Assembly: GCA_049317145.1 (NCBI GenBank)
Contig: JBMOIW010000002.1
Span: 2,121-66,120 of the forward strand
DNA: 64,000 nucleotides
Reading direction: 5' to 3'
Source: Acidimicrobiia bacterium
GTDB taxonomy: Bacteria > Actinomycetota > Acidimicrobiia > IMCC26256 > JBMOIW01
In this document: piece by piece, positions 8,363 to 33,188 of the stretch
Position numbering within the stretch: the first letter of the stretch is position 1
Layout of the letters: the number at the start of each line of letters is the position of its first letter
Program-made: the position numbers and the translations under genes
The notes under the pieces: model-generated
What the model was told of the DNA's origin: nothing
Databases searched by the model: none
What the model saw: only the letters and a program-made list of their open reading frames with translations

Positions 8363-8366
8363 CACC

Positions 8367-11048: not shown

Positions 11049-12947
11049 ATGCGCCTATCCTTCGCCACCTCGTTGTTCACGGATGATGCCGGATTCGAGC
11101 GTCAGCTCGTCCATGTCTACGACGAGATCGATGCGCAGATCGCAAGCGTGGTCGTCAAAGGGCGCGACGAGCTTCCCGAGTATTCGATCCTTCGGGGCCC
11201 GGCTCCGGTAGTTCATCTCGGCGAGCGGCCCCGCCTAGGTGAAGCGGCTGAGCCGGGGCGGTACGAAGCCTGGCAACCGCGCGGCGCAGGAACGGGTGTG
11301 CCGCATTATGTCGTCGATGCCACTCCGGTTGGGATCGCTGAGCTCGCCCATCGACTCGGGGGACCATCGCATTGGGCCGAGTTGGCGGAGCAAATGCGTG
11401 CGGGTCATTGGACTGAGGTGGCGCTGATCGTCGCCGATGCAATGTTTGCGACAGGAAACCTAGCGGCAGATGTCTCTCCCGCGATCGACACTGCACGCGC
11501 GATTCGCGATCAGCACATCGCCGAACATATGCACTGCGCTGCGATTGCATTCGATGCACTGTTTGCAGGAGAAATCACGCCCGCGCTCAGCGCCCTGGAA
11601 ACGACCGCGCCACGCTATTTCCACACCGTACAGCTCTGGATTACCGAGTCTGAGAGCAAGCCTGCCGACGTGCGTGCCCACTGGCGCGAGCGTCTCGCAA
11701 CACTTGTTCAAGAAGGACGCGTGGATCAGTTGTGTCGGGAAATTGATGCGATGCGTGATACACCGCTCGGACAACCGTACCAATGGGGCCATCAACTCAG
11801 TCAGGTGCAGTTGGCGCTCGTGGATGGCGCGAGCAAGCGGATGTTTGGCCCTGATGACCGTTACAAACCAGAGGTTGCTGAGGTCGGCTTTCCGAGCCGG
11901 TGGATGCGTAGCGAGACGGATCCGCAACGGCTAGTTCTTGTGGCTGCTGCATACGCGGGAGATCCCGCAGCAATGGATATCGTTGGCCGAGCGTTTCTTG
12001 GTCTGCGCGACCATGACGCGTTTATCGCCGAAACTCAAGCGGACAACCTTCGTTGGCGGCGCGCACACCCGCACGAACGCCGGGCGGCACAAGCCGGCGA
12101 TTTCGCAGTGGTACATGCAACACGATTTGCTCCCGAGCGAGATGCATCAGGGGCAGTGATCCTGCGCCCGACATTTGCAGCCACGGGATACGGACGATCA
12201 TCATTGCACTTCACGCTCAATCACGTTGTCTCATCCCACCTTTATGGTCAGTGGGACGATGCCGGGTACGTGATCCTCGCGAAACTCCCCGATGTCATTG
12301 CGGCAAACGGTCGCCCCGAGAATTTGTTCGGTGTGGATACGTGGTGGACCTGTAATCCGGGGGAGACGCTGCGAATCCCGAATGCAGTCGTGGTGCGGGG
12401 CGATCTTGATGCGCCGCTGTTTGGTCAAGAGGTTCGCAACGAGATCGTCTACAAATCGGGGAACTACACCGACGAAGATCTCGCCCACCTCCAGGAGCAA
12501 ACAGGATTTGATGCTGCAGCGCTCGACGCGCGACTCGCTGAGCATATGCGGGAATTTTCGGTGTCGGCGGAGAAGATCGAGCAGATGCGTCATGCGGAGA
12601 TCAGTACTGCGGTACGTGACGCGGTTGTCGGCAACGTGTTGCGCGAACTCGGAGTGCGGCGGATAGTTGGCTCCTATAACAACTGTTCGATGGACGCCGA
12701 GATCTCGCAACTTGCACGAGAACTTGGTTGCACCAGCGAGATGCACAACGGCTCGACATCGATGACGGTAGAGAAGACATCGATTCGGTATGCGCAAGAA
12801 GGTTTCCTGCGCTCCTATCCAACCGGCGGCCTCACCGAAGCAAATCCGAAAGCTCGACGCGTTGCGATTGCGGCGGGCGCACTGGCGCCGACAACACCAC
12901 GTCGCGTCGTGGCGCGCGAAACACTTGCAGGTCCAGAATTCGGCTAG
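11049..12947 (+). CDS. hypothetical protein (632 aa, soluble, no motif recognised)
   Basis: Long uninterrupted ORF with coding-like composition. ATG 11049 is preceded by GGGAG (alternative GTG at 11034). I could recognise no TM segment and no catalytic signature. Confidence 0.65.
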   Translation: MRLSFATSLFTDDAGFERQLVHVYDEIDAQIASVVVKGRDELPEYSILRGPAPVVHLGERPRLGEAAEPGRYEAWQPRGAGTGVPHYVVDATPVGIAELAHRLGGPSHWAELAEQMRAGHWTEVALIVADAMFATGNLAADVSPAIDTARAIRDQHIAEHMHCAAIAFDALFAGEITPALSALETTAPRYFHTVQLWITESESKPADVRAHWRERLATLVQEGRVDQLCREIDAMRDTPLGQPYQWGHQLSQVQLALVDGASKRMFGPDDRYKPEVAEVGFPSRWMRSETDPQRLVLVAAAYAGDPAAMDIVGRAFLGLRDHDAFIAETQADNLRWRRAHPHERRAAQAGDFAVVHATRFAPERDASGAVILRPTFAATGYGRSSLHFTLNHVVSSHLYGQWDDAGYVILAKLPDVIAANGRPENLFGVDTWWTCNPGETLRIPNAVVVRGDLDAPLFGQEVRNEIVYKSGNYTDEDLAHLQEQTGFDAAALDARLAEHMREFSVSAEKIEQMRHAEISTAVRDAVVGNVLRELGVRRIVGSYNNCSMDAEISQLARELGCTSEMHNGSTSMTVEKTSIRYAQEGFLRSYPTGGLTEANPKARRVAIAAGALAPTTPRRVVARETLAGPEFG

Positions 12948-12984
12948 GCGTTTGCGGGGGCTCGGTTCTGGTTACGACCAGTTC

Positions 12985-14658
12985 GTGACCCAGGCACTGC
13001 ATCTTCCTCTCGAAGAAGAACTTGATCGCTGGCAAGCGGTCGGGCTGATTTCGGCCGAGATCGCGACGGCCATCCGCACCTATGAAGCGGGCCGCCAGAT
13101 CGCACCGCCAGCAATCGCGTCGCCAATAATTGCCCCGCCAGCAGCCGTCGAGCCGGCAGGCCCTCCGCCTGTGCCCGGACGAGCCGTGCGCGTGTTGGTG
13201 GAAGTGCTTGCGTACTTCGGTTCCGCACTCGCGCTTTCGGGCGTGTTGCTCGTTCTGATCAACCAATGGTCGTCCTTCGAGACCTGGGCGCGCCTCATCA
13301 TTACGGTAAGCGCAACGGTGGTGTTCAGTGTGATCGGTGTGGCAGTTCCGGAAACGCAAGGAGGTGTGCGCGTTCGACTGCGCGCGGCACTGCTTCTTGC
13401 TGCAACGGCATCTGCGGTTGTTCTCGGTCAAGTGCTGATGCACGATGTGCGCGGCACCAATGACATTGCGGCGATTGTGTCGAGTGCCGCGTTGTGTGGC
13501 GGAGTGCTGAGTGCAGTGTTTTGGCAATGGCGAAACCGTCCGCTGCAACAAGCAACCACATATCTTGGGTTCGGTATTGGTGTCCCGTGTGCGGTCGCAG
13601 CGGGCTTCGGTGCCGGGTTCGCGGGAATCGCGGCATGGGGGCTCAGTGCACTGGTGCTCGCGTTCGCGCTGACGCGCCTCGCCCCAAACTTCGTGATGAG
13701 CGAAGCGCTTGCGCTTCCTGGGCTGGTCGTGGCGTCGATCACTATCGCGTCAAGGTGGCAAGGGGTCGGCGGGGGGATCGGCGTCGCCACGGCGTTCGCC
13801 CTTCTTGCGCTTGCGCTTGTTCCTGGGCTCGCCGCGACGCCACCCGATCGGATCCTGACCGGGGTATTCGGTGGTTGGCTACTTTTTCTGATGGGCCCTG
13901 CGACCGCGGGGTTTTTTGCGCACGATGCACCACTCGCAACGGGCATCGTGATGTGGGGACTCGGTGCTGCGCTCGCACTCGTTGGAGTATCCGGGCGTAC
14001 CCGGTTGCCGTTTGTTCCTGCCGCGCTCGGGTCAGGAATCGCAATGGCCGGTGCTGGAGTTGCTGGGGGATGGAATCCCGGTTTCGGTTGTCTCGCAGCG
14101 CTCGCGACGGCGATCGTGGTGTTGAGCGGGGCGCTCGTTTCCGGACTTGTGCGGCGCATCGACGTACAAGTTGCGCTCGGAATGACCGGTGGCGTGGGTT
14201 TCGTTGCTGCAACGATCGCGACGCTGCTGCACTTCTCTCGCGATGCCGCAGTGCTCACTGGTGTGGTCGCGTGGGTTGGTGCCGTTGCACTTTTGGTGGT
14301 TGCGGCTCGACGCTGGGTCCGACTACCCGTTGTCGTCGAGGTCGTTGCTGCGCTGCTCTTGCTTGGTGCGGCGGCAATCACGGGTCGCGAATCGCAAGGG
14401 TTCGCAACGTTGTTTGGACTCGCTACGTCGGTAGCGCTCTTGGGGTGCAGCGTGCTGCCCGGGCGCGTCCTGTACTCGCTCTTTGGGTGCGTCGGCATCG
14501 TGGTCTTTGTGCCGTGGACGATCGGATGGTTCTTCCCGGGAGAGAACCGCGCCCCACTGTTCGTTACGGTCTCCGGATTGTTAGTGCTGACCGTTGCGGT
14601 GATCTTGGGATTCAGCGGCCGTCGTTTCCGTCGGGAGCACGCGCAAGAACGTGGCTAA
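12985..14658 (+). CDS. polytopic membrane protein, DUF2157-like (paralog of 8562..10148)
   Basis: Track ORF 12790..14658 overlaps the upstream gene, so it is trimmed to GTG 12985. 'LDRWQAVGLISAEIATAIRTYE' is followed by a Pro/Ala linker and more than 10 hydrophobic segments. 'FWQWRNRPLQQ' is shared with the first copy. Confidence 0.65.
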   Translation: MTQALHLPLEEELDRWQAVGLISAEIATAIRTYEAGRQIAPPAIASPIIAPPAAVEPAGPPPVPGRAVRVLVEVLAYFGSALALSGVLLVLINQWSSFETWARLIITVSATVVFSVIGVAVPETQGGVRVRLRAALLLAATASAVVLGQVLMHDVRGTNDIAAIVSSAALCGGVLSAVFWQWRNRPLQQATTYLGFGIGVPCAVAAGFGAGFAGIAAWGLSALVLAFALTRLAPNFVMSEALALPGLVVASITIASRWQGVGGGIGVATAFALLALALVPGLAATPPDRILTGVFGGWLLFLMGPATAGFFAHDAPLATGIVMWGLGAALALVGVSGRTRLPFVPAALGSGIAMAGAGVAGGWNPGFGCLAALATAIVVLSGALVSGLVRRIDVQVALGMTGGVGFVAATIATLLHFSRDAAVLTGVVAWVGAVALLVVAARRWVRLPVVVEVVAALLLLGAAAITGRESQGFATLFGLATSVALLGCSVLPGRVLYSLFGCVGIVVFVPWTIGWFFPGENRAPLFVTVSGLLVLTVAVILGFSGRRFRREHAQERG

Positions 14659-15463: not shown

Positions 15464-16930
15464 TTAGTTGAGGAGCTTGGTGAGTGCGTTACGTGTCCCC
15501 ATTACGTCGATTGCCTCGAGCGCTTCCGTTACCGCCCCAATCAGGGTCTGGTTGCTCGACAACGCAGGCCCGAAGATTTCTTGGACGGCGATGAGGTGCA
15601 TCGGCGCATCCGGGTTGAGCTTGGCGCGCGAAATGAGCTCCGTGCTCATCGGGTCCGTGATCTCGATGGGCTGACCTTCTTCGTCAATGGCGCGTAGGTA
15701 GCGGTACCACGCGGCAAGTGCGAAGGCGAGGTAACGAATCGAACCACCGTTGGTGAGCTGATACTCGATCGGCGGAACAATCGCGTTCGGGATCTTCTGC
15801 GAACCGTCCATGGCCAGGCGTTGGATCTTGTCGCTGATGGCCGGGTTGGAGAAGCGGTCGAGCAGCGTGCGCTTGTATTGCGTGAGATCTACGCCCGGAA
15901 CGGTCGGGACCGACGGGGTGACGTCTTCGTCCATGTAGCGCTGCACGAACTCGCGAATCAGCGGGTCGTTCATGGCAACGTCAACTTCGCGGTAGCCCAT
16001 GAGATACGAGAGATACGACAGCGCCGAATGCGATCCATTGAGCAGACGGACCTTCATCTTCTCGTAGGGTGTGACGTCGTCGACGATCTGCACGCCTACC
16101 GTCTCGAGTGCCGGTCGGCCATTGATGAAGTTGTCCTCGAGGATCCACTGGATGAACGACTCACTGGCGACGGCACAGGGGTCTTCGACTCCGAACTCGT
16201 CGCGCGCCAGCGCCACGGTGGTTTCGTTCGGCGCGGGAGTGATGCGGTCCACCATGCAGTTCGGGAACGACACGTTGGTGCGGATCCACGCTGCGGTGTC
16301 GACATCCATCGCGTCAGCGAATTGCAGCAGTACTCGAGCGGTGACGTGACCGTTTCCCGGTAGGTTGTCGCAGGACATCACGGTGACGGGGGTTCCCCGA
16401 CGTTGCATACGTGATTGCAAACCGGCGAACAACAACGCAATGGCGGAACGCGGAGTGGCGCCGGCGAGTTCGGCGGCGATCAATGGGTGGTTGCGGTCCA
16501 GGTTGCCGTGGGTGTCGTAGCAGTAGCCCTTTTCGGTGATCGTGAGCGACACAATCCGGATGGCATCGGACGCAATTGCGTCGATTACGTCTTGCGTTTG
16601 TGTAGGCGCATGGGTGAACTCGTTGATCGAGCCGATGACCTTCATAGTGTCGGTGGTGCCCGAGCGCTCAATCAGCGAGTACAGGTTCTGCTGGGCGCGC
16701 ATTGCAGTGATGAGTCCAAGGTCCGAGTCGAGGCAACCGACTCCGTGAATCATCCAGTCCTCGGCGTGCTGTTGGAGAAACTCGTGGACGTAGAGCGCTT
16801 GATGTGAGCGGTGGAATCCGCCGACGCTCATGTGCAAGATGCCGCTCTGCAACGCAGTGCGGTCGTACTGAGGAAAGGATGCGACCTTCGGGTTCTGTCT
16901 CGCTGCTGTGATCGATTGAATCGGGTTCAT
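15464..16930 (-). CDS. mannitol dehydrogenase family protein (long-chain polyol dehydrogenase)
   Basis: 'ILHMSVGGFHRSHQALY' Rossmann start and a length of about 489 aa typical of mannitol 2-dehydrogenase / fructuronate reductase. ATG 16930 overlaps the upstream stop as ATGA (the track start 16936 is a TTG). Confidence 0.85.
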   Translation of the reverse strand: MNPIQSITAARQNPKVASFPQYDRTALQSGILHMSVGGFHRSHQALYVHEFLQQHAEDWMIHGVGCLDSDLGLITAMRAQQNLYSLIERSGTTDTMKVIGSINEFTHAPTQTQDVIDAIASDAIRIVSLTITEKGYCYDTHGNLDRNHPLIAAELAGATPRSAIALLFAGLQSRMQRRGTPVTVMSCDNLPGNGHVTARVLLQFADAMDVDTAAWIRTNVSFPNCMVDRITPAPNETTVALARDEFGVEDPCAVASESFIQWILEDNFINGRPALETVGVQIVDDVTPYEKMKVRLLNGSHSALSYLSYLMGYREVDVAMNDPLIREFVQRYMDEDVTPSVPTVPGVDLTQYKRTLLDRFSNPAISDKIQRLAMDGSQKIPNAIVPPIEYQLTNGGSIRYLAFALAAWYRYLRAIDEEGQPIEITDPMSTELISRAKLNPDAPMHLIAVQEIFGPALSSNQTLIGAVTEALEAIDVMGTRNALTKLLN

Positions 16931-18594
16931 CGCCAACCAAGTCCTTCCGAGTTCGAGAGCCGCCGAGGAGCGGTCCTGAAGTATTGCTGAGTCCCTAGGT
17001 GCACTGTCGCCGGTTGCACGGTTGCTTCGAAGCCGGAACCTCCGCCGATTCCCGACCGGCCAAACGGCCCGGTAAGGATTCGAGCAGAGTTGAGTCCGGC
17101 TTGGAGCTGGTCCACAATCTGATTGGGGCCCGCAGCGCCAATTACGCGTCGGAACGCCTCGGTCAGCTTGGTGTCCGTGCGAAGACGCCGGGCTGGCGCT
17201 ACCTGGCTCAAGAAGGCTCCGGCGTTGCTATAGAGCTCGTCGGGGAGTTGTTGACTGGTGAGCCCGGCACCGACCGCAACGGGGTCAAGGATGTTGAAGC
17301 GCTCGGCGCGGTGTGCTTCGAGGTACAGCGTCCACAGCCCGACGCTCATGAGGAGGTGGTCATTGGGGAGACCGTGAGCGAAGGTGTCGGTTAGTGGGTC
17401 AAGGATGCGTTCTGGCAGCTTCTCGTAACCGTTGCGCGCCAAGCGCTCGAGGCTGTCGGCCATCGCAGTGTTCGTGAGTCGTTGGAGTACTTCGTCACCG
17501 TATTTCCGCAGCGCTTGAGGTGAGAGTCCCGCATTGGCACTCGTGTTCAAAGCCACGGTCGGGATTGCTTCGTCAAGAAAGCCGGCGATGAACGCGTGCA
17601 CGATCGGGTCTGCCATTGCCTCTGCGGTGAAGTTATATCCGCGCAGGCGGCCCAGCATGCCGAGGGCAACGTGTGCCCCATTCAGGATGCGGATTTTCAT
17701 CATGGCGTGTTGGGTAACGCCATCAACGAGTTCAGCGCCGACTTTCGTAAACTCTCGCAGGACCGGGTGGTCGCCATGCCCCGAGATGATGAGGGGATGC
17801 ATCGGCATGGGTTCGGTGAAGACCGGCCATGGATTACGTGAAGCAAGCTCAGGGTCGTAATTGGCAAGCCACTCACAGTGCGATTCGCTGGTTGTCTCAA
17901 CGATGCGGTCCACCATGGTGTTCGGGAACAGCACGCGTGATCGGAGCCAGTCCAAAAACGCGGTGTTATCGCCCCACTCGTGACCCTGGACCGGGGTGTC
18001 CTTGCGGTGCTCAACGTATGAGATCACTGCCAACCGCAGACAATCGCCATTGTCCACGATGTTGTCGAGCGACATCACCACTACTGGATCCAGGCCTGCC
18101 TCGAAACGGCGGTGCAGACCGTGGGCGACCATTCCGATTGCAGTGTTCGGGAGTTCGGCTTGGAGACACTGCACGACGTCGTCGTGATCGACCGCAAGAC
18201 CGAGCGCCGGGTTGTAGTAGTAACCGTTTTGCGTGATGGTGAGGGTGACGAGCTTGGTGTCTGGCCGTGCGATCGCTTCTACGACTGCTGCGGGATCTTC
18301 GGGAGCAATCAAGACATCCGCAATGCTGCGAACGCGTTCGGAACTAACCCCGACACCGCCGGCTATTGATGGGTCTGAGTAGCGGGTGATGACGTCGTAC
18401 TCAAAGCCAAACGGCTCGAGCTGGTGTCGCAAATCCGAAGACTTTGGGGATACGGCGATGATGCGCCGACCAACCCGATCCGCTAACACTGCAAGGTGCG
18501 CGCGGCCGAAGTGACCGGTGCCGAGGTGCACGATGCTGGGGTCACGTTCCGCACGCGGTCTGTGCTTTGACGATGCCTTATGAGCCGGGCTCAT
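16927..18594 (-). CDS. mannitol dehydrogenase family protein, divergent paralog
   Basis: 'IVHLGTGHFGRAHLAVL' plus a family-like core. Trimmed to ATG 18594; the track start 18684 would add an Arg-rich extension running into the divergent promoter region. Confidence 0.7.
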   Translation of the reverse strand: MSPAHKASSKHRPRAERDPSIVHLGTGHFGRAHLAVLADRVGRRIIAVSPKSSDLRHQLEPFGFEYDVITRYSDPSIAGGVGVSSERVRSIADVLIAPEDPAAVVEAIARPDTKLVTLTITQNGYYYNPALGLAVDHDDVVQCLQAELPNTAIGMVAHGLHRRFEAGLDPVVVMSLDNIVDNGDCLRLAVISYVEHRKDTPVQGHEWGDNTAFLDWLRSRVLFPNTMVDRIVETTSESHCEWLANYDPELASRNPWPVFTEPMPMHPLIISGHGDHPVLREFTKVGAELVDGVTQHAMMKIRILNGAHVALGMLGRLRGYNFTAEAMADPIVHAFIAGFLDEAIPTVALNTSANAGLSPQALRKYGDEVLQRLTNTAMADSLERLARNGYEKLPERILDPLTDTFAHGLPNDHLLMSVGLWTLYLEAHRAERFNILDPVAVGAGLTSQQLPDELYSNAGAFLSQVAPARRLRTDTKLTEAFRRVIGAAGPNQIVDQLQAGLNSARILTGPFGRSGIGGGSGFEATVQPATVHLGTQQYFRTAPRRLSNSEGLGWR

Positions 18595-18636
18595 TCGCAG
18601 GATCCTCCAGACGGTTCGCCCGGTGCGGGCGTGAAG

Positions 18637-18670
18637 GGTTGAATGTAGCGGTCGGCGCGCGGATTCAACC
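18637..18670. promoter_or_regulatory. inverted repeat GGTTGAAT-N18-ATTCAACC in the divergent polyol-dehydrogenase / ribokinase intergenic region (candidate operator)
   Basis: Arms at 18637..18644 and 18663..18670 were read directly from the sequence. Located between start codons 18594(-) and 18725(+). Confidence 0.3.
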
Positions 18671-18724
18671 AGGGACAGAGCCACTCATGTCCCGCTAGCA
18701 TCCCCGAATCTCTGAGGAGGACCC

Positions 18725-19639
18725 ATGAGTACCGTGTACGTTGCTGGCGCTGCTGTGATGGATGTGATCGCACATGCGGATCATCATCCCCGCACGGCTG
18801 AGACCGTAATCGGCCGTGATCTGGGCTTTTTTCCCGGTGGCAAGGGATATAACCAAGCAATCGCGGCGGCCCGGATTGGTGCGTCGACGTGGTTCATGGG
18901 CGCGGTCGGCGCAGATGCATTCGGGCGCGACCTACGCGAGTACCTCGAAGCAGAGGGTATTAATACGACGGGTATTTACACTGCGAACAGTGCAAGCGGT
19001 GCTGCATTGATCAACGTCGACACCGAGGGCCAGGTCGCCGTCAACGTGGTCTACGGCGCGAACGAACTCGCAGACCCGGGAATCCTTCAAGGCTTCTCTC
19101 CGCGTGCCGGCGATGTCTTGATTTCACAACTCGAGATTCCGTACCCCACCGTCGAAGCGTTTTTCGAGCGCGGACGCAACGTTGGCGCTCGAACGATCTG
19201 CAACCTGGCGCCTGCGCGCGAAGCCAACGATCGCATTGTCGAGCTCTCCGACATCGTGGTTGTCAACGAAGTCGAACTGTCGTTTTTCTCGGGCGTTCCG
19301 ATCACGGACGACGCAAGTCGCGAAGATGTTGCGGCCGCGGCACTCAAGTTGCGTCGCTTTGACGAACAGTGGATCGTGGCGACGCTCGGACGTCGTGGCG
19401 CAGTCGCGGTCCATGCGGACGACATCTTCGAGATTCCAGGGGTTACGGTCGAAGTTCGAAACACCATCGGTGCTGGCGATTGTTTTGTGGGCTCGATGGG
19501 CGCCTGTTTGGCCCGCGGGAGCGGCGTCGTTGATGCAATCCAATATGCCAATGCCGCGGCAGCGATCAGCGTGCAGCGGGACGGTGCCGGACCGGCGATG
19601 CCCTTCGGAGACGAAGTCGACGCGTTTCTGACGCGGTAG
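18725..19639 (+). CDS. rbsK: ribokinase / PfkB-family sugar kinase
   Basis: 'FPGGKGYNQAIAAARIG' (the GG motif region) and C-terminal 'NTIGAGDCFVG'. GAGGAGG RBS upstream. Confidence 0.8.
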   Translation: MSTVYVAGAAVMDVIAHADHHPRTAETVIGRDLGFFPGGKGYNQAIAAARIGASTWFMGAVGADAFGRDLREYLEAEGINTTGIYTANSASGAALINVDTEGQVAVNVVYGANELADPGILQGFSPRAGDVLISQLEIPYPTVEAFFERGRNVGARTICNLAPAREANDRIVELSDIVVVNEVELSFFSGVPITDDASREDVAAAALKLRRFDEQWIVATLGRRGAVAVHADDIFEIPGVTVEVRNTIGAGDCFVGSMGACLARGSGVVDAIQYANAAAAISVQRDGAGPAMPFGDEVDAFLTR

Positions 19640-23937: not shown

Positions 23938-24705
23938 TTACGCCGTTGCCCAGGCAGTAGGTCCGCAGTTCTGGACGCCTTTGCCCCCAGTCGGGACGAG
24001 CGCCGGGAGCGCCAGGGCGGTGAGGGCGGACGGGTCTAACTGGCAGTTTTGGTAGACGAAGGTGGGCGCTGCTCCACCCGCCGTTGGGAGCCCCACCAAA
24101 TTCACTTGTACCCCAGTGATGGAAAAGAGTGCTTTCGCGATTCCCGAAGGTGTGCTGAACGTAACCACTACATAGTTTCCGGCGCACTGCGCGCTTCGTG
24201 CAGTGATCCCTTGCGTTGCCCGCTGAACAGTGAATTGACTCAGCATCTTCTGCAAGAGCGGTGTTGGGCTGCAGCTCGTCGGGTTGTTGTTCGCTGGTCC
24301 GGCGTTTGTTGGGCTCGGGGATGCTGTGGTGCGTGTGACGCGTGTCGCACCAACGCTTTGTCCATTGATGTCGGTACCATCAATTGCGATTCGGTGAGCT
24401 GTGCCATCGCAAGGCAGTTCTACGACGATGGTTCCGCTCTCGCCAATGTCCTGCGCCACGTGGATGGAGTCAACAAAGATTCCGAGGCTCCGCACGTCGC
24501 GAGTTGTCCAGGTCACCTCTACTCGACCTTGGGTGCAATCTGCGACGGCGGGAACAGCGAAGCGCGTGACGCCTGGTCCCGAGTCAACAGCGATTGGTGT
24601 GGTCGTCGTTGTCGATGTTTTCGACGTTGACTTGTTCCCAGAACACCCGGCGAGAAGAAGCAGTAAGGCTCCGCTCATCATAAGGATTTTGGACTGTGTT
24701 TGCAT
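23938..24705 (-). CDS. lipoprotein, unknown function
   Basis: Lipobox 'LLLLAGCSG', a poly-Thr linker, and two Cys-containing globular halves. The stop abuts the ltrA stop. Confidence 0.7.
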   Translation of the reverse strand: MQTQSKILMMSGALLLLLAGCSGNKSTSKTSTTTTTPIAVDSGPGVTRFAVPAVADCTQGRVEVTWTTRDVRSLGIFVDSIHVAQDIGESGTIVVELPCDGTAHRIAIDGTDINGQSVGATRVTRTTASPSPTNAGPANNNPTSCSPTPLLQKMLSQFTVQRATQGITARSAQCAGNYVVVTFSTPSGIAKALFSITGVQVNLVGLPTAGGAAPTFVYQNCQLDPSALTALALPALVPTGGKGVQNCGPTAWATA

Positions 24706-24770
24706 CGCGGCCCCCGAAATGACGACGAGCGGAGGCTATCCGGATCGGGCGTCGCGCGGTATGCAAGCCG

Positions 24771-25796
24771 ATGGAGGGGCACTACCATTCTTTCGTGCGT
24801 TCGCCGATTGTCCTCACCCTCGGACTCTTGTTCGTCTTTGCGGGTGCATGCTCCGTAGAGCATGCGACGGATACCAAAAGGCCCATGCCGACGTCGCTCC
24901 AATCTGACGAACCGACGTCGCCCCCGCCGGAACCACCAACCCAATCAGTCGTTACCAACAATTCCCCCGTCACGGTCGAAGCGCTTCCGACAGAAGCAGA
25001 CTCGCGTGAACGACTCCTGAGACTCCGAACGACGACGGGTGGTGAATCGCGTACCTGGCTCATTGCCCAACAGCAAGAATCCGAACCACCAGGAGGACCT
25101 CGGCCGTTCTTGATCGTCCTTCACGGTGTCGGAGGGAACGGTCCGGCGATGAGAACCTTGGGTTTCGAGGAGTTGGCTGGCTCGACAGTGATTGCGTATC
25201 CCGACGCGGTGGACGGGAGCTGGAACGATGAACGAACCGGTGTTGACTCACGAGCGCATCGAGAACACGTCGACGACGTGCGCTTCATTGGTCAGATTGT
25301 GGAGGATGCAAAAACCCGCTTTGGGATTGATCCGCTGCGCGTCTTCATCGTTGGGGTATCAAACGGCGGAATCATGGCGGCATACATTGGCTGTTCGTCC
25401 TCGGTAGTGATCCGAGCAATTGCCCTCGTCAACGCGATGGCCCCAGCAAATCTTCCGCAAACGTGTCGCGCCCAGCCGCCCATTGCAACGTTGATTGTTC
25501 ACGGGTCGCAGGACAAAACCGTTCCCGCTGCAGGAGGGCCTGTGGCGGCAAACGCCGGCCGCGCGCGAGGCTCGGTGATGTCGTTGACGGACTACTTTGC
25601 TCTCCTGCTCGCACGGTCCGGATGCTCGGGAAAAGATGTAACCACCACGGCGCGGGTGCAGCGGTGGAGCGGACGTGAGTGTGTGCATGGGCCCGAACCC
25701 GTCGCCAATGTTGTGTTCGATGGTGCGCATTCGTGGTTTGTGCCACCGATGTTTCCCACCACCGCAACTGTCTGGTTCTTTCTCACAGCGCAATAG
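24771..25796 (+). CDS. secreted alpha/beta hydrolase, PHB-depolymerase/LpqC-type esterase
   Basis: Lipobox-like 'FVFAGAC'. 'LIVLHGVGGNG' and the nucleophile elbow 'GVSNGG' are as in COG3509-type esterases. Confidence 0.7.
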   Translation: MEGHYHSFVRSPIVLTLGLLFVFAGACSVEHATDTKRPMPTSLQSDEPTSPPPEPPTQSVVTNNSPVTVEALPTEADSRERLLRLRTTTGGESRTWLIAQQQESEPPGGPRPFLIVLHGVGGNGPAMRTLGFEELAGSTVIAYPDAVDGSWNDERTGVDSRAHREHVDDVRFIGQIVEDAKTRFGIDPLRVFIVGVSNGGIMAAYIGCSSSVVIRAIALVNAMAPANLPQTCRAQPPIATLIVHGSQDKTVPAAGGPVAANAGRARGSVMSLTDYFALLLARSGCSGKDVTTTARVQRWSGRECVHGPEPVANVVFDGAHSWFVPPMFPTTATVWFFLTAQ

Positions 25797-25862
25797 GGTT
25801 CGACGTCTGTCCGTAACCCAACACGGTGCCCGCTCATAGCTCCGCGCAACAGCGTGGGCCCG

Positions 25863-28265
25863 TTACCGCGTGATTTGTGCGCTCTCGGTGTAGATCTTGG
25901 AGAACATCGTTGTGAGTTCGTTATAGATGGCGTCGTCATTTGTGAATGCATCCGTCGTGTTTACGACGATCACTAAATCTGAAGCGGGAGCATATTGAAT
26001 AAAGGTGTACGCAGTGTTAAATCCGTATGCTTTGACCTGCACCTTCCCGTCAGAATCCGTGGTACACGGACAGAACACGTTGAGTCCTGGCCCGATCCCG
26101 GTCGTGGTGTTGGCCCCGAGCATTGCGGCCATTGAAGAGTTCTTCAAAACGGACTGATCGCGGATGAGGGCGTTGGTCCAGACCATGAGGTCATGGACAG
26201 TCGAGATCAAACCGCCAGTGGAAAAATGCGGTGCTCCAGCACTCGGAGGGGTGGGGACAGTCGAAGTCAGACTGAGCGGAGTGAGGAGTTCGCCTCGCAA
26301 CATGGATTCGAATGAGCGGCCGTAGACCTGCTCCAAGAGAAACCCAAGCACTAAGTAGTTCGAGCTCGAGTACTCCTGTCGCGTGCCGGGGGCAAAAGCC
26401 AGTGGTTCCGCTTGGGCCGCGAGGAGGGCCGCAGCCGGAGAAGCAATGCTTGCCGGGTTTTCGCGATATTGGCGAGTGTCCCGATATGCACGCAATCCTG
26501 TGCCGTGCTGCAACAGTTCACGAACGGTGAACTGGGTGGCGTACGTGAACTGAGGAACCGCTTGAAGCGGTGGCAGGGGCGCATCGAGGCTCAAACGATC
26601 CTCCTCAATCGCTTTGTAGACGAGGGCCGCGGTAAATGTTTTTGTGACGCTCGATATTGCAAACGTGTCATCGGATCGGAGCGGTTGGGTGCCGTCCACT
26701 GTTCCACTTGCGAAAGTCCATGACCATGCGCCGGGACGCATAACACCGATCTGAAGGCCCTGCATCTTCGCGGATGTCAAAAATTCGGTTATTGCACTTT
26801 TCAACCCGGCAGCCTTGAGCTCGTCAAGCGCCGGTGCGAGTTGATTTTCGTTGTGCTCAGCGGTGGCAGTATCTCGGCGCGATGTAATTGGTGCGATTGT
26901 CTGGAGCGCGCCAGAAGTGTTTGCGCTGTTATCGGACTTGCCGTTCGTGCTAGAGATCACGAGCGGCTTTGGCGCTTGAGAAGGCACGCGGGGAGCGGCA
27001 GCGGCGCGTTCGGGCACATTCTGGTAATTGAGGATGCTGACTATTAGGCACACGATGCCTGTAGTGACCGCAACACGCACTGCGAGTGGAGTACGAGTTG
27101 CTTGTGCGGTGCGCCATTTGTGGCGCGACGTGTCCGCAGCGGAGGGAGGTGAGAAGCGGCGCGCCAGTGGCCACACGCGCGGCCGACGTCCTCCGGCGCG
27201 ATCTTCAATCCAGCCAAACAGTGCGACAAACACCAGCGTGCACAGTGTCACCACGAAGAGCACTGCCGGCAGCTCGAGTTCCGTGGGCACTCGCAGCGGG
27301 CGAATAAGTGCCCATGCACATACAACTCCAGCAGAATGCCACAAGTAAATCGTCAGGGTACGTTGGGTTATCCAGCCGATGACAGGCGTGATGACGCGCA
27401 GCTTGGAAAAGGCGACTACCCACGGTGCTCCGGCGAATGCCAGCGCGAGCCAGGCGAAACCGATGAAGAGGTGCGCCGGATGCGAGTTGTTTACAACGCC
27501 GTCCGGCACCGGCTGCGTGAAACACCAGACCGCTCCGGCAATCCCGGAAATACCAGCGAGTCCGAACCACTGCTTGCGGGTGATCCGGTCGAGTCCGCGT
27601 TGACGGTGCACGAATCCGAGAAGGAAAAACACCGAGTAGAGGGCAAGGTCCCCGACGATCCAGGGCAGCTCCGGAACCGAACGAAATACGGAAACGAAAG
27701 CGGTCCAACGACCAAGGAAGTCGAGCGCGAACACCAACGTCAGCGCCGTGCCGAAGGTTGCGACTTTCGAACGGCGGAGCGCTTTCATGAGCAGCGGGCT
27801 CAACAGCAGTAACCACAAGAGCGTGCGGAGGTACCACAGCGGAGCGGAAAGGTATCCACCCTCCCAAGTCGAACCTTTCGGATCGCTGAGGGGCACGAGC
27901 CAAACGATGATCCGATGCCAAGGAACACGAGTGTCGGGTGTGTCGAGGGCAATCGCTGCGACGATCATCACGCCGTAAGCGCCGGCGGTAAATGCCCAGA
28001 GGGGAATGAGCAATCGTTTGGCTCGGTCCAACAGCACCCTGCGCGCAGCTTGATTTGCGAGCGATTTGGCCAGCAAGCTCCCCGTGACAAAAAACATTGC
28101 CGGAACCGCAGAAAAGAAGTACGTGATCACCGCAGCGCCGAAGGTGTGCCAGAGAACAACGCGAATGATTGCAATTGCTCGGATGGCGTCGAGGAATTGC
28201 TCGCGCGACGCGGCAGAGCTGACCTTCGGCGGGCAGTAGAGGCGGCGGGGACGCACATGGAGCAC
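25863..28265 (-). CDS. fusion protein: acyltransferase-3 (AT3) membrane domain + C-terminal beta-lactamase/PBP-like serine hydrolase
   Basis: The N-terminal half has about 10 TM segments and 'FLDAIRAIAIIRVVLWH' (AT3 start). The C-terminal half has SxxK ('SSVTKTF') and 'YSSSNY'. The first canonical start after the upstream gene is GTG 28265, so the start is uncertain. The 3' part is visibly more A/T-rich than its surroundings. Confidence 0.7.
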   Translation of the reverse strand: MLHVRPRRLYCPPKVSSAASREQFLDAIRAIAIIRVVLWHTFGAAVITYFFSAVPAMFFVTGSLLAKSLANQAARRVLLDRAKRLLIPLWAFTAGAYGVMIVAAIALDTPDTRVPWHRIIVWLVPLSDPKGSTWEGGYLSAPLWYLRTLLWLLLLSPLLMKALRRSKVATFGTALTLVFALDFLGRWTAFVSVFRSVPELPWIVGDLALYSVFFLLGFVHRQRGLDRITRKQWFGLAGISGIAGAVWCFTQPVPDGVVNNSHPAHLFIGFAWLALAFAGAPWVVAFSKLRVITPVIGWITQRTLTIYLWHSAGVVCAWALIRPLRVPTELELPAVLFVVTLCTLVFVALFGWIEDRAGGRRPRVWPLARRFSPPSAADTSRHKWRTAQATRTPLAVRVAVTTGIVCLIVSILNYQNVPERAAAAPRVPSQAPKPLVISSTNGKSDNSANTSGALQTIAPITSRRDTATAEHNENQLAPALDELKAAGLKSAITEFLTSAKMQGLQIGVMRPGAWSWTFASGTVDGTQPLRSDDTFAISSVTKTFTAALVYKAIEEDRLSLDAPLPPLQAVPQFTYATQFTVRELLQHGTGLRAYRDTRQYRENPASIASPAAALLAAQAEPLAFAPGTRQEYSSSNYLVLGFLLEQVYGRSFESMLRGELLTPLSLTSTVPTPPSAGAPHFSTGGLISTVHDLMVWTNALIRDQSVLKNSSMAAMLGANTTTGIGPGLNVFCPCTTDSDGKVQVKAYGFNTAYTFIQYAPASDLVIVVNTTDAFTNDDAIYNELTTMFSKIYTESAQITR

Positions 28266-28383: not shown

Positions 28384-30219
28384 TTAGTTGGCGGTGGGGG
28401 GCAACGTCGGAACCTCGGGGGCAAACACGCGCGTGAGACCCTCGGTCTCCATGCCTGCTTGGGTCTGTTGCTCGCGTGTTGCACGAATGACGGCGCTCTC
28501 GTTGCGCGCTACCCATTCGCGGTGGCCAACTCGTACCACCAGCGCGCTCGACGCAAAGGGGTGCCCTCGGGTGATACCGGTGAGCGCTCCGCGATCTGGA
28601 AGCTCGCCGATGATCGTTGCAGATCCGCCCTTCAGTAAGGAGTCGTAAAACTCTTGCTGGACACGCGAGAGTGAACCGGTCATCCACTTTACTTCTACGG
28701 AAAGGAATAGTTCCCGCTCGATTGCGCGGAGTCGCTGCTCTCGGCGGACGCGTGTTTGATCAGCCAGATCGATCACTTCGAGCTCATGGAGTAGCTCAGC
28801 ACGAGATTGGCGCAGCTGTTCCCCGCGCGGTCCGGCGCGCATAGCCAGGATGTCGATGTCCGTCTGCGACTTACCAACGCGAACATCAACTCGGCGACCA
28901 ATGATCTGGTATCCCATACGCACAACTTCATGTTCGGCGCAGGGTTGTGCCACGGTCGAGCCGAGCAGGATGGAGATTTCGGGAATTACATGGGCATACG
29001 TGCCGTACGCGGAGTACACCGTGGGTACTGCGGTTGCAGTGTCAACCATCGGCATACTGCGGTGCGGGAGTCCGAGGGCTGCACGTTCATGGTCGAGCGC
29101 TACGCTCTCTGCGACGAGTTCATCCCGCTGCAGTTCGAGCTGTATGCCCATATGTTCGATTGCCGTGCGTTCCATCTCAAGGCGATTGCGTTCGTGGGCA
29201 AGGAAGTCTCGCTCGACCCGTAACCGGCGTGCCTCACGCTCGAGGTCGCGTTCGGAGGGCGGGCGGGAGTATTCCGGATGTTGTTCGAGGAATGCATCGC
29301 GAGCGAGTACGTCGTTATGGAGGTGGACGCGTTTGGTTTCTAAACGTTGCAGTTGCACTTCAAGTCGTGCGCAGTGGCGTTCGAGGTAGGTGATGCGGTG
29401 TTGCGTGTCGGACATCGGTGAACGGGAACGGGAACGTGCATCAGGGAGCGGAGTCGTGCGCAGATCGGCGAGGCTGGCGAGCGCAGTGTCGAGTTGCTGA
29501 GTGACTTCATGCAGGCGTTGCTCGGTCTCGTAGAGCTCGAACGATCGGTCCGGCGGGACGACGGCCGGACCAAGAATGCGCTCGACGAGCGCGGGTACTT
29601 CGTTCCAGGAGCGGGCGCGCATCCAGCTGCCGAGACTCTGGTTGTAGGGTTGGTCGAAGATGATGTGCGGGACTGCGTTGCGGCGGAAATCGTCAATACT
29701 GGAAACCGCGTCATCGATGAACAGATCAGCGTGCACCATGGACTTGGCAGAACTGCCAAAGTGATCGCCTACGAAGAGCACCGGGCCTTCAGGAAACCCA
29801 TTTTGTGTGAGCGCGTATTCGGTTTGTTGGGGAACATCCAGGATTCGCGGTCGCGCCGTGACGTAGCGGATCCGGTATCCGGCGTCCTCCAAAGCGTGCA
29901 GCGTTTCGGCTGCGCCGGCGATTGCGGGAACGTTCTGGGAAAACCCACGTCCAAGAGCAAACTGCTCAATCGCGAGAAATTCTTCCGGCGTCACCCCCCA
30001 CTCGGGTGCAAACCAGCTCACGCGCGTCGCGAGATTATTGGCACGCACGTACAGGCGACCCGGTTGATTTGCGCGGATCCACTCTGCGGCGTGCTGCCGT
30101 AATCCTTTCGAGTATTCGAAACAAACGTTGTCGAGAGTGACTGCAATGATCGGCTGCCGGGCAGCAACTTCTGAAGTTTTCGGCGTTACTTCTCGCGCTG
30201 GTTGAATGATGCCGCTCAC
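28384..30219 (-). CDS. three-part protein: NT5C/HAD-like N-domain, long coiled coil, C-terminal VRR-NUC / PD-(D/E)xK-like module
   Basis: GTG 30219 with AGGGAG 4 nt upstream. N-domain has 'IIAVTLDNVCFEY ... LFIDDAVSSIDDF' (5'(3')-deoxyribonucleotidase-like layout). Residues of about 225-400 are heptad-rich ('LEVQLQRLETKRVHL', 'RLRVERDFLAHERNRLEMERTAIE'). C-terminus has 'DIDILAMR ... LSVEVKWMTGSLSRVQQEFYDSLLKGG'. Confidence 0.7.
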   Translation of the reverse strand: MSGIIQPAREVTPKTSEVAARQPIIAVTLDNVCFEYSKGLRQHAAEWIRANQPGRLYVRANNLATRVSWFAPEWGVTPEEFLAIEQFALGRGFSQNVPAIAGAAETLHALEDAGYRIRYVTARPRILDVPQQTEYALTQNGFPEGPVLFVGDHFGSSAKSMVHADLFIDDAVSSIDDFRRNAVPHIIFDQPYNQSLGSWMRARSWNEVPALVERILGPAVVPPDRSFELYETEQRLHEVTQQLDTALASLADLRTTPLPDARSRSRSPMSDTQHRITYLERHCARLEVQLQRLETKRVHLHNDVLARDAFLEQHPEYSRPPSERDLEREARRLRVERDFLAHERNRLEMERTAIEHMGIQLELQRDELVAESVALDHERAALGLPHRSMPMVDTATAVPTVYSAYGTYAHVIPEISILLGSTVAQPCAEHEVVRMGYQIIGRRVDVRVGKSQTDIDILAMRAGPRGEQLRQSRAELLHELEVIDLADQTRVRREQRLRAIERELFLSVEVKWMTGSLSRVQQEFYDSLLKGGSATIIGELPDRGALTGITRGHPFASSALVVRVGHREWVARNESAVIRATREQQTQAGMETEGLTRVFAPEVPTLPPTAN

Positions 30220-30291
30220 GCCACTCCCTGGCTTGTGTTGGTTCGCAAAGTTCTACACGCCGTTGAAACCGGGGTCACAACGGATTGGTCC

Positions 30292-32880
30292 TCATCGCCA
30301 AATTTCGCGCACTACCGGCGTCGGCCCGAGCCGATCGCCGAGTCGTATTGCGGCTGGATCGAGGATGTTGCCGCTCATGATCGTGCCACCATTGGCCGCA
30401 AGTCGAGGGTGCCCAGCGCGCTGTGCCCTGGTGAGCGAACCTTTTCCGCCCTTGACTTCTTTGACGTAGACGCCACGGGGATGACGAATGACGAAATCCG
30501 CTTCAAAAAAGATGCCGTCCCCGACGTCAATCACAACGTGATCGGCGAGCACTTCCTCGCCGGCCATCGCTGAGGCGGCGAGGGCGTAACGCTCTGCCAT
30601 ATCGCCGAACGCCTTAGCCAGCGGTGGGTCGATGGCGTTGAGTTCAGCGAAATCGCGATGGACGCTGAGAACTTTTTGTTGGACCGCGTCCGCTACAGCA
30701 ATATCGGACTGCTGAGCACACTTGGCGATCTGGCGTTTGAGTGCAATGAGTCGTTGGTGGTCTTCCTCGCGAGCTCGAGCAATAGCGATGCGTTTCCTTT
30801 TCCCCAATCGATGGGATTCCAGAGCGACGTCATATTCGGCGATACGCGCTTCATAACTTGTGCGACGTGCTTCGAGACGATCCTGCATAGTCTGCAGCGG
30901 GTTGCTCGAACCTGAAATGTCGACAAGGACATCGAGTGCCATGCGCGCAGCGCGTGAGCGGCCGAGTCGCCGCACCAGGAGCGCTTGGGGGTCTTGGCCG
31001 GGGAGTGCAGCGGGACTGGGCTCTACCAACATCGTGTTGCGATGCACGCCGCGCGAGAGCGCGGTGTACGCCTCTTCGCGTGTGGCGTGTGGCGAGACGA
31101 GGTAAATGGCCTCGCCCACTTTTAGGGCTTGGGCATCGTGCACCGTGAGCGCGTATGCGTGCTGCACTTGGCCGGTCGTGAGATACGAGGCAGGAACGTT
31201 CCGCACGACGGTGCGTTGGCCGGAGCGGATTGCCACGGTGATCGCGCCGGTTTTGGTATTCACCTTTGTTACCCGGGCGAGAGTCCCGGTCTGAATCTGC
31301 AAGTACGACGCCGTAAAAAGCAAGAGCACGTCGTCACCGGCAGCGATTGCAAATCCGGAATCGGCAGTGAGCTCAGGTCCCTGCAGTCGTCCGCACGCGC
31401 GCAGTGCTTGCCGGGTGAGGTTGTTGAGTTCCGCAACGCTCGACGGGTCGCCGGCGAGAATAAGGCAATGGCTCTCGATGCTCGGCGGGTCAGCGGTCGG
31501 ATCGAGATTCGCTGTTCGTACCCAGTGAGCGGCGGCGGTTTCGCGCGCATGGTCAGCGGATTCCGCAGCGATAACGCGCTTGTGTTCGCTGTATTGCTGG
31601 AGCGCAGTCCCGATATCGCCGGAGCGAAGATCGAGGAGTGCAGCTCGCTCCCATGCTTTGCTCTGGCGTCGAGTCCCACTTAAGTGCTGCGTATCGGGCC
31701 GTCTCCGCTCGAGCGCGGCGAGCGCTCCGGCAGCCTCGTCGGCAGCCATCTGAAACGGGTCACCGATCAGAACAACTTTTGCACCAGATGTACCGGTAAT
31801 GCGGAACAAGCGATCAAGCATGCGAGTACCGATGCACGAGGCTTCATCGACGATCACCACAGTATTTTCCAGGAGCGCCGCTTGATCCTGCTCGACGAGC
31901 GCGTGCAGTGGAATTGTTGGGATCCCAGTCTTTTCCGCGAACCGGCCCAACGCAACGGGGCGAAGAGCGGTACCAACAACGGGGATCCCGGCCGCGCCCC
32001 AAATGTCACGGGCGGCTTCCATGAGGTTCGTCTTGCCCGCGCCAGCCGAACCAATCAGCAAGTCAACACCGTTGCCTGAGGTCGTAAGAAACTCGAGTAC
32101 TGCGCAGCGTTCCTCGTTGATGCGTTTCGCGCCGGTGACGCGTCGCCACTCATGGAGCACATGTTCGGCGACTTCTGGATCTACCTGGCAGATGCCAGAT
32201 GCGCGCGTATCCTCCGCGTGGGTAATTACTCGAAGCTCGGTCGCAAGCATTTCGTTGGTTGTGAAGCGACGGGATTCAAGTGCACCAGCGCCGTTTAGGA
32301 GGATTCCTTCCTGCGCCAAGAACTCATCGGCGAGCGCAACGGTGTTCTCTACAGTGAGTGCGGTTTCGCTGACGCGGGCAATCTCGCGGATGACGTGCTC
32401 GCGACGGAACGTTGGATGCGCCTTTGTCAGTCCTTCGGCCCCGGCGAGATGGGCAAAGAGTGGGTTCGGATCGAAACCCGCTGCCGGACCAGTGGGCGAT
32501 TGCTGTCTTTGCGTTGCGAGCAGCGCAGCTATGTGGCGGTCATGAAGGTGTTGCAGGAGCTCCGCAGTGCTTTCGAGCAATTCGGGATGGAGGTGCCCCA
32601 GCCGTGAACCGACGGCGGGGATGTCGTGGCTGAGTTCCAGACGAGTAGTGATCCCAGTTTCGTGGTGGCGAGTGGTTGCGACACCGAGGACGCCCTGTTG
32701 CAGCACCTCGCGCTCGAGGTAGAGCAAGCAGGCATCGACTCCTGCACGATGCGCGTCGCGCAGAGTGTCATCGGGCGGAAATATTGGACTCGTTGCATCA
32801 TCGAGTGGTGTGACGAGCTCGATCGCAATTTCCGATCCGCGTAGGAGATGGCTGGTGAGTGCTTCTTGGTGATCGAGCAC
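30292..32880 (-). CDS. MobF/TrwC-like relaxase remnant fused to a RecD/TraA-type P-loop helicase and a C-terminal VRR-NUC-like module
   Basis: 'LRDAHRAGVDACLLYLEREV' matches the TrwC-domain core. Walker A 'GSAGAGKT', Walker B 'VVIVDEAS' and 'LIGDPFQM' are present. C-terminus has 'EADFVIRHPRGVYVKEVKGGKGSLTRAQ...ANGG'. The first canonical start is GTG 32880, but homology continues upstream (see findings). Confidence 0.8.
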   Translation of the reverse strand: MLDHQEALTSHLLRGSEIAIELVTPLDDATSPIFPPDDTLRDAHRAGVDACLLYLEREVLQQGVLGVATTRHHETGITTRLELSHDIPAVGSRLGHLHPELLESTAELLQHLHDRHIAALLATQRQQSPTGPAAGFDPNPLFAHLAGAEGLTKAHPTFRREHVIREIARVSETALTVENTVALADEFLAQEGILLNGAGALESRRFTTNEMLATELRVITHAEDTRASGICQVDPEVAEHVLHEWRRVTGAKRINEERCAVLEFLTTSGNGVDLLIGSAGAGKTNLMEAARDIWGAAGIPVVGTALRPVALGRFAEKTGIPTIPLHALVEQDQAALLENTVVIVDEASCIGTRMLDRLFRITGTSGAKVVLIGDPFQMAADEAAGALAALERRRPDTQHLSGTRRQSKAWERAALLDLRSGDIGTALQQYSEHKRVIAAESADHARETAAAHWVRTANLDPTADPPSIESHCLILAGDPSSVAELNNLTRQALRACGRLQGPELTADSGFAIAAGDDVLLLFTASYLQIQTGTLARVTKVNTKTGAITVAIRSGQRTVVRNVPASYLTTGQVQHAYALTVHDAQALKVGEAIYLVSPHATREEAYTALSRGVHRNTMLVEPSPAALPGQDPQALLVRRLGRSRAARMALDVLVDISGSSNPLQTMQDRLEARRTSYEARIAEYDVALESHRLGKRKRIAIARAREEDHQRLIALKRQIAKCAQQSDIAVADAVQQKVLSVHRDFAELNAIDPPLAKAFGDMAERYALAASAMAGEEVLADHVVIDVGDGIFFEADFVIRHPRGVYVKEVKGGKGSLTRAQRAGHPRLAANGGTIMSGNILDPAAIRLGDRLGPTPVVREIWR

Positions 32881-33188
32881 GAGGCCGGATAGCCCGAGGA
32901 GGTCGGCGCCGGAACCTACCCAACGGACCTGAGTGCCCTGAGCCGATGCTCGTTTTGTTTTCGCCGGGGGGAGAAATGCCGAAGTCGAGATGCCGCATTT
33001 TGGCAGCGGTCGAAACTTCCGCCAACGGTGTATAACGACTGTTCAGCATGAGTTCACCAGTTGGGAGTTCTCTTTGCGAATTCGTTGAACCGGGCTGGGG
33101 ACATCGGGGTGGAGGATGCAAGGGGACGAGCGATGGGTAACGCTGCTCAGTTAGGGGATTGTGGCTTTTGCGGTCTAGCCTGACGCCG

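Follow-up and report, generated by a model that had tools for sequence, protein, structure and literature searches.

The nearest described relatives of the two-gene locus analyzed here are the MobF relaxases, represented by TrwC of R388, TraA of Ti plasmids and TraI of F, the superfamily 1B (SF1B) helicases RecD2, Pif1 and Dna2, the NT5C-type (mdN/cdN) 5'(3')-deoxyribonucleotidases (PF06941) and the NERD and VRR-NUC families of the PD-(D/E)xK clan. In general layout, the locus also resembles the helicase-nuclease defense systems Nhi, Hachiman HamAB and Gabija GajAB and the PADLOC candidate PDC-S68, with which it shares a helicase, putative PD-(D/E)xK-type nuclease modules and a two-gene operon. 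We know of no described helicase-nuclease defense system with a relaxase-derived motor or an NT5C partner, and literature searches returned no described system of this composition. The locus lies in a 64-kb stretch (termed the window, which always means the whole stretch analyzed) of a contig from an uncultured Acidimicrobiia bacterium. It comprises gene 1 (30292-32880, 862 aa; NCBI 'AAA family ATPase', MFZ4514821.1) and gene 2 (28384-30219, 611 aa; NCBI '5' nucleotidase, NT5C type', MFZ4514820.1), both on the minus strand and 72 nt apart, as a first-pass annotation made from the sequence had reported. We tentatively favor, at somewhat less than even confidence, a conserved chromosomal operon encoding a two-protein DNA-processing machine that arose by exaptation of a MobF relaxase-helicase and whose preferred role would be the destruction of invading or aberrant DNA.

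Gene 1 is predicted to consist of a vestigial relaxase domain, an SF1B helicase, a coiled coil and a NERD-like nuclease module. The TraA/RecD2-type helicase (residues 151-640; 30961-32430) matches Pfam AAA_30 at 7.5e-41 and NCBIfam TraA_Ti at 2e-65, the latter only over profile positions 259-742, which make up the helicase half of the profile. Apart from its own family, the next database matches of gene 1 are genuine MobF relaxases, 34-36% identical in the helicase only and including those of Acidimicrobiia, and a Foldseek search with the AlphaFold2 (AF2) model of the protein returned RecD2 (1.9e-14), Pif1 and F TraI (5n8o, 7.7e-10). The motifs GSAGAGKT, VVIVDEAS and LIGDPFQM quoted in the first-pass annotation are present and invariant, the family-wide set being Walker A GSAGAGKT (277-284), Walker B DE (345-346), GDPxQ (373-377), RRQ (404-406) and SRG (609-611), with motifs III and IV and the motif VI arginine among the invariant elements. 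Judged by these motifs, the ATPase-helicase core of gene 1, of the TraA/RecD2-type SF1B kind, is intact. Like Dna2, it appears to join an SF1B motor to a PD-(D/E)xK-type module (predicted in the case of gene 1) in one polypeptide, but the putative nuclease of gene 1 is C-terminal and NERD/VRR-NUC-like whereas that of Dna2 is N-terminal and RecB-like with an Fe-S cluster. Unlike RecD2, Pif1 and Dna2, to which sequence identity is only ~20%, the pair has a second subunit with a paralogous nuclease-like module.

The N-terminal 150 residues of gene 1 (32431-32880) have no Pfam match, and none to the relaxase family PF08751, and align to four genuine Acidimicrobiia MobF relaxases. The segment LRDAHRAGVDACLLYLEREV, which had been cited as evidence of a TrwC/MobF-like relaxase core, indeed aligns to the 'AHDxAVxAALxYLE' helix of MobF relaxases, and the AF2 model weakly matches the TrwC relaxase domain (1omh_A, Foldseek E 1.7e-3). 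What survives in the gene 1 family are the W.G.GA..LGL motif and the AH..AV..L.YLE helix, whereas alignment to MobF shows that the catalytic tyrosine segment, APKSVS, the HRTSRxxDPxLHTH triad and about 130 residues are gone in four of four members. The family proteins start at or after W.G.GA..LGL and the segment bearing the catalytic tyrosine(s) (the TrwC Y18/Y26 region) is missing in every one of them, while the positions aligned with the histidine triad (HxTSRxxDPxLHTH) hold TTRHHETGITTRLELSHD in the window and other residues again in the orthologues, with no HxH conserved. On these alignments the HUH relaxase domain is not a core but a vestige that has lost every catalytic element. Because the same vestigial architecture is found in all members, the truncation must be ancient and stable. 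Gene 1 further differs from MobF relaxases in its added C-terminal coiled coil and NERD-like module and in its chromosomal, syntenic setting, which has no type IV coupling protein (T4CP), type IV secretion system (T4SS) or origin of transfer (oriT) context. By its sequence, it is derived from the MobF family and is not a functional member of it, and the pair is without a DNA-transfer function.

In the window, an in-frame remnant of the relaxase W.G.GA..LGL motif, RWVGSGADLLGLSGL (32881-32925, minus strand), stands just ahead of the GTG at which gene 1 is annotated to start. No ATG, GTG or TTG occurs between the preceding stop codon and the motif, and the remnant is therefore probably untranslated in this genome; either the start has been lost here or a non-canonical start is used. 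The gene 1 orthologues on two other contigs (L001 and L002) encode the motif and can translate it. The gene 1 call on L002 (844) starts too far downstream, and a GTG near position 616 would take in W.G.GA..LGL.

Behind the helicase, gene 1 continues with a predicted coiled-coil linker of long helices (residues ~641-750; 30631-30960), of which residues 643-734 are helical by DSSP on the AF2 model with a predicted local distance difference test score (pLDDT) of up to 85, and ends in a NERD/VRR-NUC-like module (residues ~751-862; 30292-30630). In this module E775, D795, E808-V-K810, Q820 and the C-terminal PTPVVRE.W tail are invariant, and no other part of the protein is as well conserved, with identities of 75, 60 and 52% where the helicase has 60, 46 and 45%. 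The C-terminus of gene 2 (residues ~396-572; 28504-29034) carries a nuclease-like module with invariant T453-D454-x-D456, E509-V-K511, L517-S518 and Q521 and with an inserted helical hairpin of ~45 residues that separates the D and ExK strands. Compared as profiles by hhalign, the two modules gave a probability of 85% and an E-value of 6.4e-6 over 50 columns from the EVK motif. When the full-length gene 1 and gene 2 profiles were aligned, the C-terminal modules were the sole aligning region, in a weaker match (probability 8.6%, E 0.0039) that extends farther toward the N-terminus and takes in the preceding helix as well as the D strand. Homology of the two modules is thus supported at the profile level, and the plan that had been read from the sequence, a long helical segment followed by a related C-terminal block in both proteins, holds.

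Both modules share with the NERD and VRR-NUC families the D..E-V-K signature followed by an L-S/T-x-x-Q helix and a GG strand, and weak profile matches recur across the members. All five gene 1 proteins match NERD (PF08378), with a best E-value of 1.2e-4 at 20.7 bits, just short of the cutoff of 22.1, and three of the seven gene 2 proteins match VRR_NUC (PF08774; best E 0.007, 13.6 bits against a cutoff of 23.8), one gene 2 member also matching a PHROG Holliday-junction-resolvase family (E 0.003). The element order predicted by AF2, at a pLDDT below 50, reads alpha-beta-beta-beta-alpha in the gene 1 module taken alone and alpha-beta-beta-beta-alpha-beta for the modules in general, which fits the PD-(D/E)xK core. 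The modules depart from NERD and VRR-NUC in their sub-threshold scores, in the helical insertion of gene 2 and in a distinctive C-terminal strand (PVVRE.W in one, LVxRV..E in the other) for which we know of no counterpart in these families. We assign both to the PD-(D/E)xK fold with low confidence, on motifs, secondary-structure order and sub-threshold profile matches. Of the VRR-NUC / PD-(D/E)xK-like C-termini that had been proposed, the invariant D..E-V-K..Q pattern stands, and the family assignment stays below the curated cutoffs. Structure comparison, which had been suggested as a check and was made with Foldseek on the whole models, confirmed no parts other than the helicase, relaxase and HAD ones; a fold search on the C-terminal modules is not meaningful because their pLDDT falls below 50.

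Gene 2 begins with an NT5C-type HAD domain (residues 23-212; 29584-30153), recognized already in the first-pass annotation and matching PF06941 at 1.1e-18 (68.2 bits, gathering cutoff 24.8); its AF2 model matches HAD phosphatases in Foldseek. With the NT5C enzymes it shares the HAD fold and motifs II-IV, since T121 (motif II), K159 (motif III) and D169-D170 (motif IV) are invariant in the family, and the orthologues also have the DxDxV motif I. What had escaped notice is the nucleophile: motif I reads T28-L-D-N-V in the window and D-L-D-N-V in six of six orthologues, the Thr28 codon ACT (30136-30138) being two base changes away from GAY. The nucleophilic aspartate is hence a feature of the gene 2 family that the window copy does not have. 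Since a threonine occupies the nucleophile position, the window nucleotidase is predicted from established HAD chemistry to be catalytically dead, the rest of the protein being intact, and the Thr28 variant shows, as far as sequence can tell, that HAD catalysis is dispensable in at least one genome. Unlike stand-alone NT5C enzymes, the gene 2 domain continues into a coiled coil of ~170 residues and the nuclease-like module; this coiled coil is predicted as three long helices (residues ~225-382; 29074-29547, from DSSP on the AF2 model) and gives weak SMC/JetC coiled-coil matches.

The full gene 2 architecture is very rare. An exhaustive HMMER search of 1.84 billion representatives recovered it in five full-length clusters and one fragment, the remaining listed matches, apart from one protein with the C-terminal module alone (P0128, below), being to the NT5C domain only and nearly all of them proteins of ~200 aa. 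A further large protein search with the profile of the gene 2 C-terminal module yielded one 99-aa fragment and no distant relatives, and a metagenome DNA scan with the gene 2 alignment added one short contig (L083). For gene 1 there are three full-length relatives, none with a relaxase domain, and its C-terminal module has no counterpart in any of 119 relaxase-type matches. Neither a scan of viral contigs that used the gene 2 alignment nor a tblastn search of phages with the two C-terminal parts gave a match; against plasmids, the C-terminal part of gene 1 had no match and full-length gene 2 had one weak match confined to the NT5C domain. The gene 2-type module was found outside an NT5C fusion only once, in a 302-aa protein on a 1234-bp contig (P0128, from ENA; E 1.7e-25), where it is joined to the initial ~110 residues of a 5'-3' exonuclease of the Pol I type; the protein may come from a chimeric assembly or represent a genuine second kind of fusion.

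Pairing could be judged on five contigs. The two genes are adjacent in the window and in L001, L002 and L085, cluster-mates of both proteins also lie on one 143-kb contig, and no contig long enough to judge was found with one gene and not the other. Both genes are full length in orthologues down to 33-44% identity, and the 72-nt spacer (30220-30291, minus strand; 67-77 nt in the orthologous loci) keeps an AGGGAG-type ribosome-binding site ahead of the GTG start of gene 2. On L001 (40 kb) the order is ABC1, helicase, NT5C protein, lipoprotein, HDAC and LtrA, with DJ-1, Lgt and an ABC/FtsX transporter on the far side of ABC1 as in the window; L002 shows ABC1, helicase, NT5C protein and the AT3-beta-lactamase fusion, again as in the window, and L085 shows the C-terminus of the helicase, the NT5C protein, lipoprotein and LtrA. 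The Pfam annotations of L001 and L085 list housekeeping genes only. The pair is apparently inherited vertically at one syntenic site, and the co-occurrence outside plasmids and integrated conjugative elements that had been put forward as a test is borne out on the five contigs, with housekeeping flanks wherever these are readable.

Both genes are under constraint. In the one unsaturated comparison, gene 2 of L001 against that of L083, dN/dS is 0.17 at a dS of 0.15, and in all other comparisons the proportion of nonsynonymous differences (pN, 0.19-0.46) lies below that of synonymous differences (pS, 0.65-0.75), from which both genes are, by sequence, functional and under purifying selection. 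Between the window and L001, dN is 0.56 for gene 1 and 0.70 for gene 2, in comparison with 0.13-0.19 for ABC1, DJ-1 and Lgt, 0.52 for LtrA and 0.46 for the lipoprotein orf255; on these values the pair evolves faster than its core neighbors, and not uniquely so.

The chromosomal setting was surveyed by Pfam scans of the larger open reading frames (ORFs) across the 64 kb, several of which have no Pfam match. In this survey we found no genes for T4CP, T4SS, integrase, replication (Rep) or partition (Par) functions, in agreement with the absence of transfer machinery noted earlier. The pair is flanked directly by ABC1/UbiB on one side and by an AT3 plus beta-lactamase fusion on the other, which confirms the ordinary chromosomal flanks first read from the sequence, and the Pfam-matched genes of the window further include PheA, SerRS, a LysRS-type synthetase, purE, dnaX, metF, Nramp, a P-type ATPase, Lgt, an ABC/FtsX transporter, DJ-1 and LtrA. 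The GC content of the pair (0.59-0.62) equals the window average, so that its base composition matches the host. A repeat scan found no attachment (att)-like direct or inverted repeats flanking the pair, promoter, terminator, repeat and Rfam scans around it gave nothing informative, and the only Rfam matches in the window, four tRNAs and the signal recognition particle RNA, are not close to it.

Taking these observations together, the two proteins most likely form a heteromeric, ATP-driven helicase-nuclease. In such a machine the coiled coils that precede the homologous modules would pair the two proteins and thereby bring the two paralogous nuclease modules together as a heterodimer, nuclease dimers being usual for PD-(D/E)xK endonucleases. 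The helicase would load on single-stranded DNA (ssDNA) or on a 5' tail, perhaps with the aid of the vestigial relaxase fold as an ssDNA-binding domain, and would move 5' to 3' while feeding DNA to the nucleases. The HAD domain might dephosphorylate the released deoxynucleoside monophosphates (dNMPs) or only bind nucleotide, the second option fitting the window genome because its nucleophile position holds a threonine. Conjugative, plasmid or phage DNA would be the favored targets.

A defense role for this machine is plausible. The origin from a mobile-element initiator, the rarity of the family, its faster evolution than that of core neighbors and the parts list point toward it, while the fixed position among housekeeping genes and the missing defense-island signal point to lineage-specific repair or recombination. 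Several observations weigh against the favored reading. No defense or mobile genes were found near the pair in the Pfam survey, and no model in PADLOC-DB v2 specific to a known defense system matches: gene 1 gave only generic RecD-type ATPase matches over short stretches (typeIV_RecD 3.8e-12, PDC-S68 3e-11), the best gene 2 match had an E-value of 0.037, and no match covers the nuclease, coiled-coil or NT5C parts. The pair lies outside any defense island, unlike the helicase-nuclease defense systems named above, and its synteny persists across deep divergence, an unusual trait in a defense locus. Its faster dN (0.56-0.70) is matched by that of the neighboring LtrA and lipoprotein genes (0.46-0.52). 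As to the machine itself, helicase motif V is degenerate in the gene 1 family, which makes translocation probable rather than certain. All nuclease-family profile matches lie below curated thresholds, and searches of PDB sequences with profiles of both C-terminal modules returned chance matches only. The AF2 models of the two full-length proteins, built from alignments of 3-4 sequences, reach mean pLDDT values of 59.9 and 52.6, with less than 50 in both C-terminal modules. Finally, Thr28 and the lost upstream start of gene 1 may together mark early erosion in this genome. The candidate undescribed system of the first-pass annotation therefore emerges as a real and conserved locus of novel architecture, for which a role in defense found no direct support.

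The same machine might instead serve housekeeping, as a lineage-specific helicase-nuclease for repair, recombination or replication intermediates that belongs to the core genome, is inherited vertically and follows a logic comparable to that of Dna2, AddAB or AdnAB. We take this as a serious if rather unlikely contender. Its position between housekeeping genes in every readable locus, the purifying selection on both genes, their native base composition, the lack of defense or mobile neighbors in the survey and our failure to find a clade member without the pair all speak for it, but five full-length clusters and a fragment make a very narrow range for a housekeeping function, and both genes evolve 3-4 times faster than the flanking core genes. 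In addition, the window genome tolerates loss of the HAD nucleophile, and an ancestry in the relaxase of a mobile element would be more usual for a conflict system. The pair was also not found within 10 kb of ABC1 in any of 80 other GTDB species of Acidimicrobiia and Actinomycetota (L003-L082); their ABC1 proteins are 58-72% identical to that of the window and their genomes are much more GC-rich, and since these genomes are distant the absence is not counted as variable presence among close relatives. The clade that carries the pair has a GC content of about 60% and an ABC1 at least 73% identical to that of the window. Closer relatives were not to be had from the flanks, given that no protein at least 90% identical to the pair's flanking genes occurs in 15 billion sequences and that the 90% clusters of ABC1 and DJ-1 hold the window's own proteins only.

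A sharper version of the defense hypothesis, which we consider doubtful, is that the pair constitutes an undescribed immune system against mobile DNA (anti-conjugation or anti-phage) built by capturing a conjugative relaxase. Here the dead HUH fold and the TraA-type motor would recognize, and load onto, transferred-strand or rolling-circle ssDNA, the paralogous nucleases held by the coiled coils would destroy it, and the nucleotidase domain would act on the dNMPs so produced, either dephosphorylating or sensing them.

It is improbable, in our view, that the two genes are neighbors without a joint function, gene 2 being an oddly tailed enzyme of the nucleotide pool and gene 1 an orphan helicase in its own right. 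An NT5C domain alone is a common stand-alone enzyme and the physical interaction of the two proteins is a prediction, but adjacency, order and spacer length are kept across the five judged loci despite 33-44% identity, both proteins carry a homologous C-terminal module found otherwise only in P0128, and in both a long coiled coil directly precedes it. That the pair is what is left of a decaying plasmid or integrated conjugative element is very improbable. Gene 1 clearly derives from a MobF relaxase, its relaxase domain is eroded and two more lesions mark the window copy, D28T and the loss of the upstream start; set against this, orthologues as little as 33-44% identical still have both ORFs at full length, dN/dS is 0.17 with pN far below pS, the helicase and D..ExK motifs are invariant, all members share the same vestigial architecture, and neither further element genes in the Pfam survey nor att repeats nor a shift in composition came to light. 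In our judgment, the decaying tail of a conjugative element that the first-pass annotation had kept as its fallback is excluded by the synteny of the locus together with its intact ORFs, its invariant motifs and the purifying selection on it. That gene 1 is an active orphan MobF relaxase mobilizing DNA in trans through a T4SS elsewhere is scarcely credible, even with MobF relaxases as its best database relatives outside the family, because all catalytic elements (tyrosine segment and His triad) are lost in every member, PF08751 does not match, the C-terminal module is without counterpart among the 119 relaxase-type matches and neither T4CP nor T4SS was found in the window.

If the favored reading of an exapted two-protein machine is correct, a conjugative relaxase had its strand-transferase chemistry deleted and its motor kept, and a nuclease was added, which would be a new architecture among helicase-nuclease machines; a nucleotidase-like partner with a copy of this nuclease module seems not to have been described before. 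Should the role be defense, immunity would have been built from a mobile element's own initiator protein. The family is so far known from a handful of uncultured Acidimicrobiia contigs, and its key domains are without a confident model.

The borders of the locus differ in their stability. On L001 (14791-15570) and L085 (2772-3548) gene 2 is directly followed by the gene of a secreted lipoprotein (orf255) with a LAGCS lipobox, Thr/Pro-rich linkers and an invariant C-terminal GGKGVQNCGP, whereas in the window (23938-28265) an alpha/beta-hydrolase gene and the AT3-beta-lactamase fusion lie between gene 2 and the lipoprotein. As the gene after gene 2 differs between L001 and L085 on one hand and the window and L002 on the other, the gene 2-side boundary has been rearranged within the clade. 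The orf255 lipoprotein was considered as a third gene of the system and rejected, since the two inserted genes separate it from the pair in the window. Upstream of ABC1, we found neither the pair nor the AT3-beta-lactamase fusion, the hydrolase, orf255, LtrA or orf409 in any of the 80 species (L003-L082), and downstream of ABC1 an Lgt homologue was found in roughly half; on this pattern the pair sits at a breakpoint of synteny. Several of these records are labeled Bifidobacterium breve or Solirubrobacterales despite an ABC1 that is 64-69% identical to the Acidimicrobiia one, which suggests mis-binned contigs.

Elsewhere in the window, the region 8290-14658 consists of a tRNA gene (8290-8362) and, directly after it, a block without Pfam matches. 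Two paralogous multi-pass membrane proteins (8505-10148 and 12790-14658) that share W..WV..G.I near the N-terminus are encoded in the block, as are a soluble protein of 637 aa (11034-12947) and a lipoprotein (10226-10870), and the strong negative AT skew there is due to these genes. Two tandem paralogues of the mannitol-dehydrogenase family (15464-18684) adjoin a PfkB sugar kinase (18725-19639), and the genes of this segment (15464-19639) probably form a small polyol or hexuronate utilization cluster.

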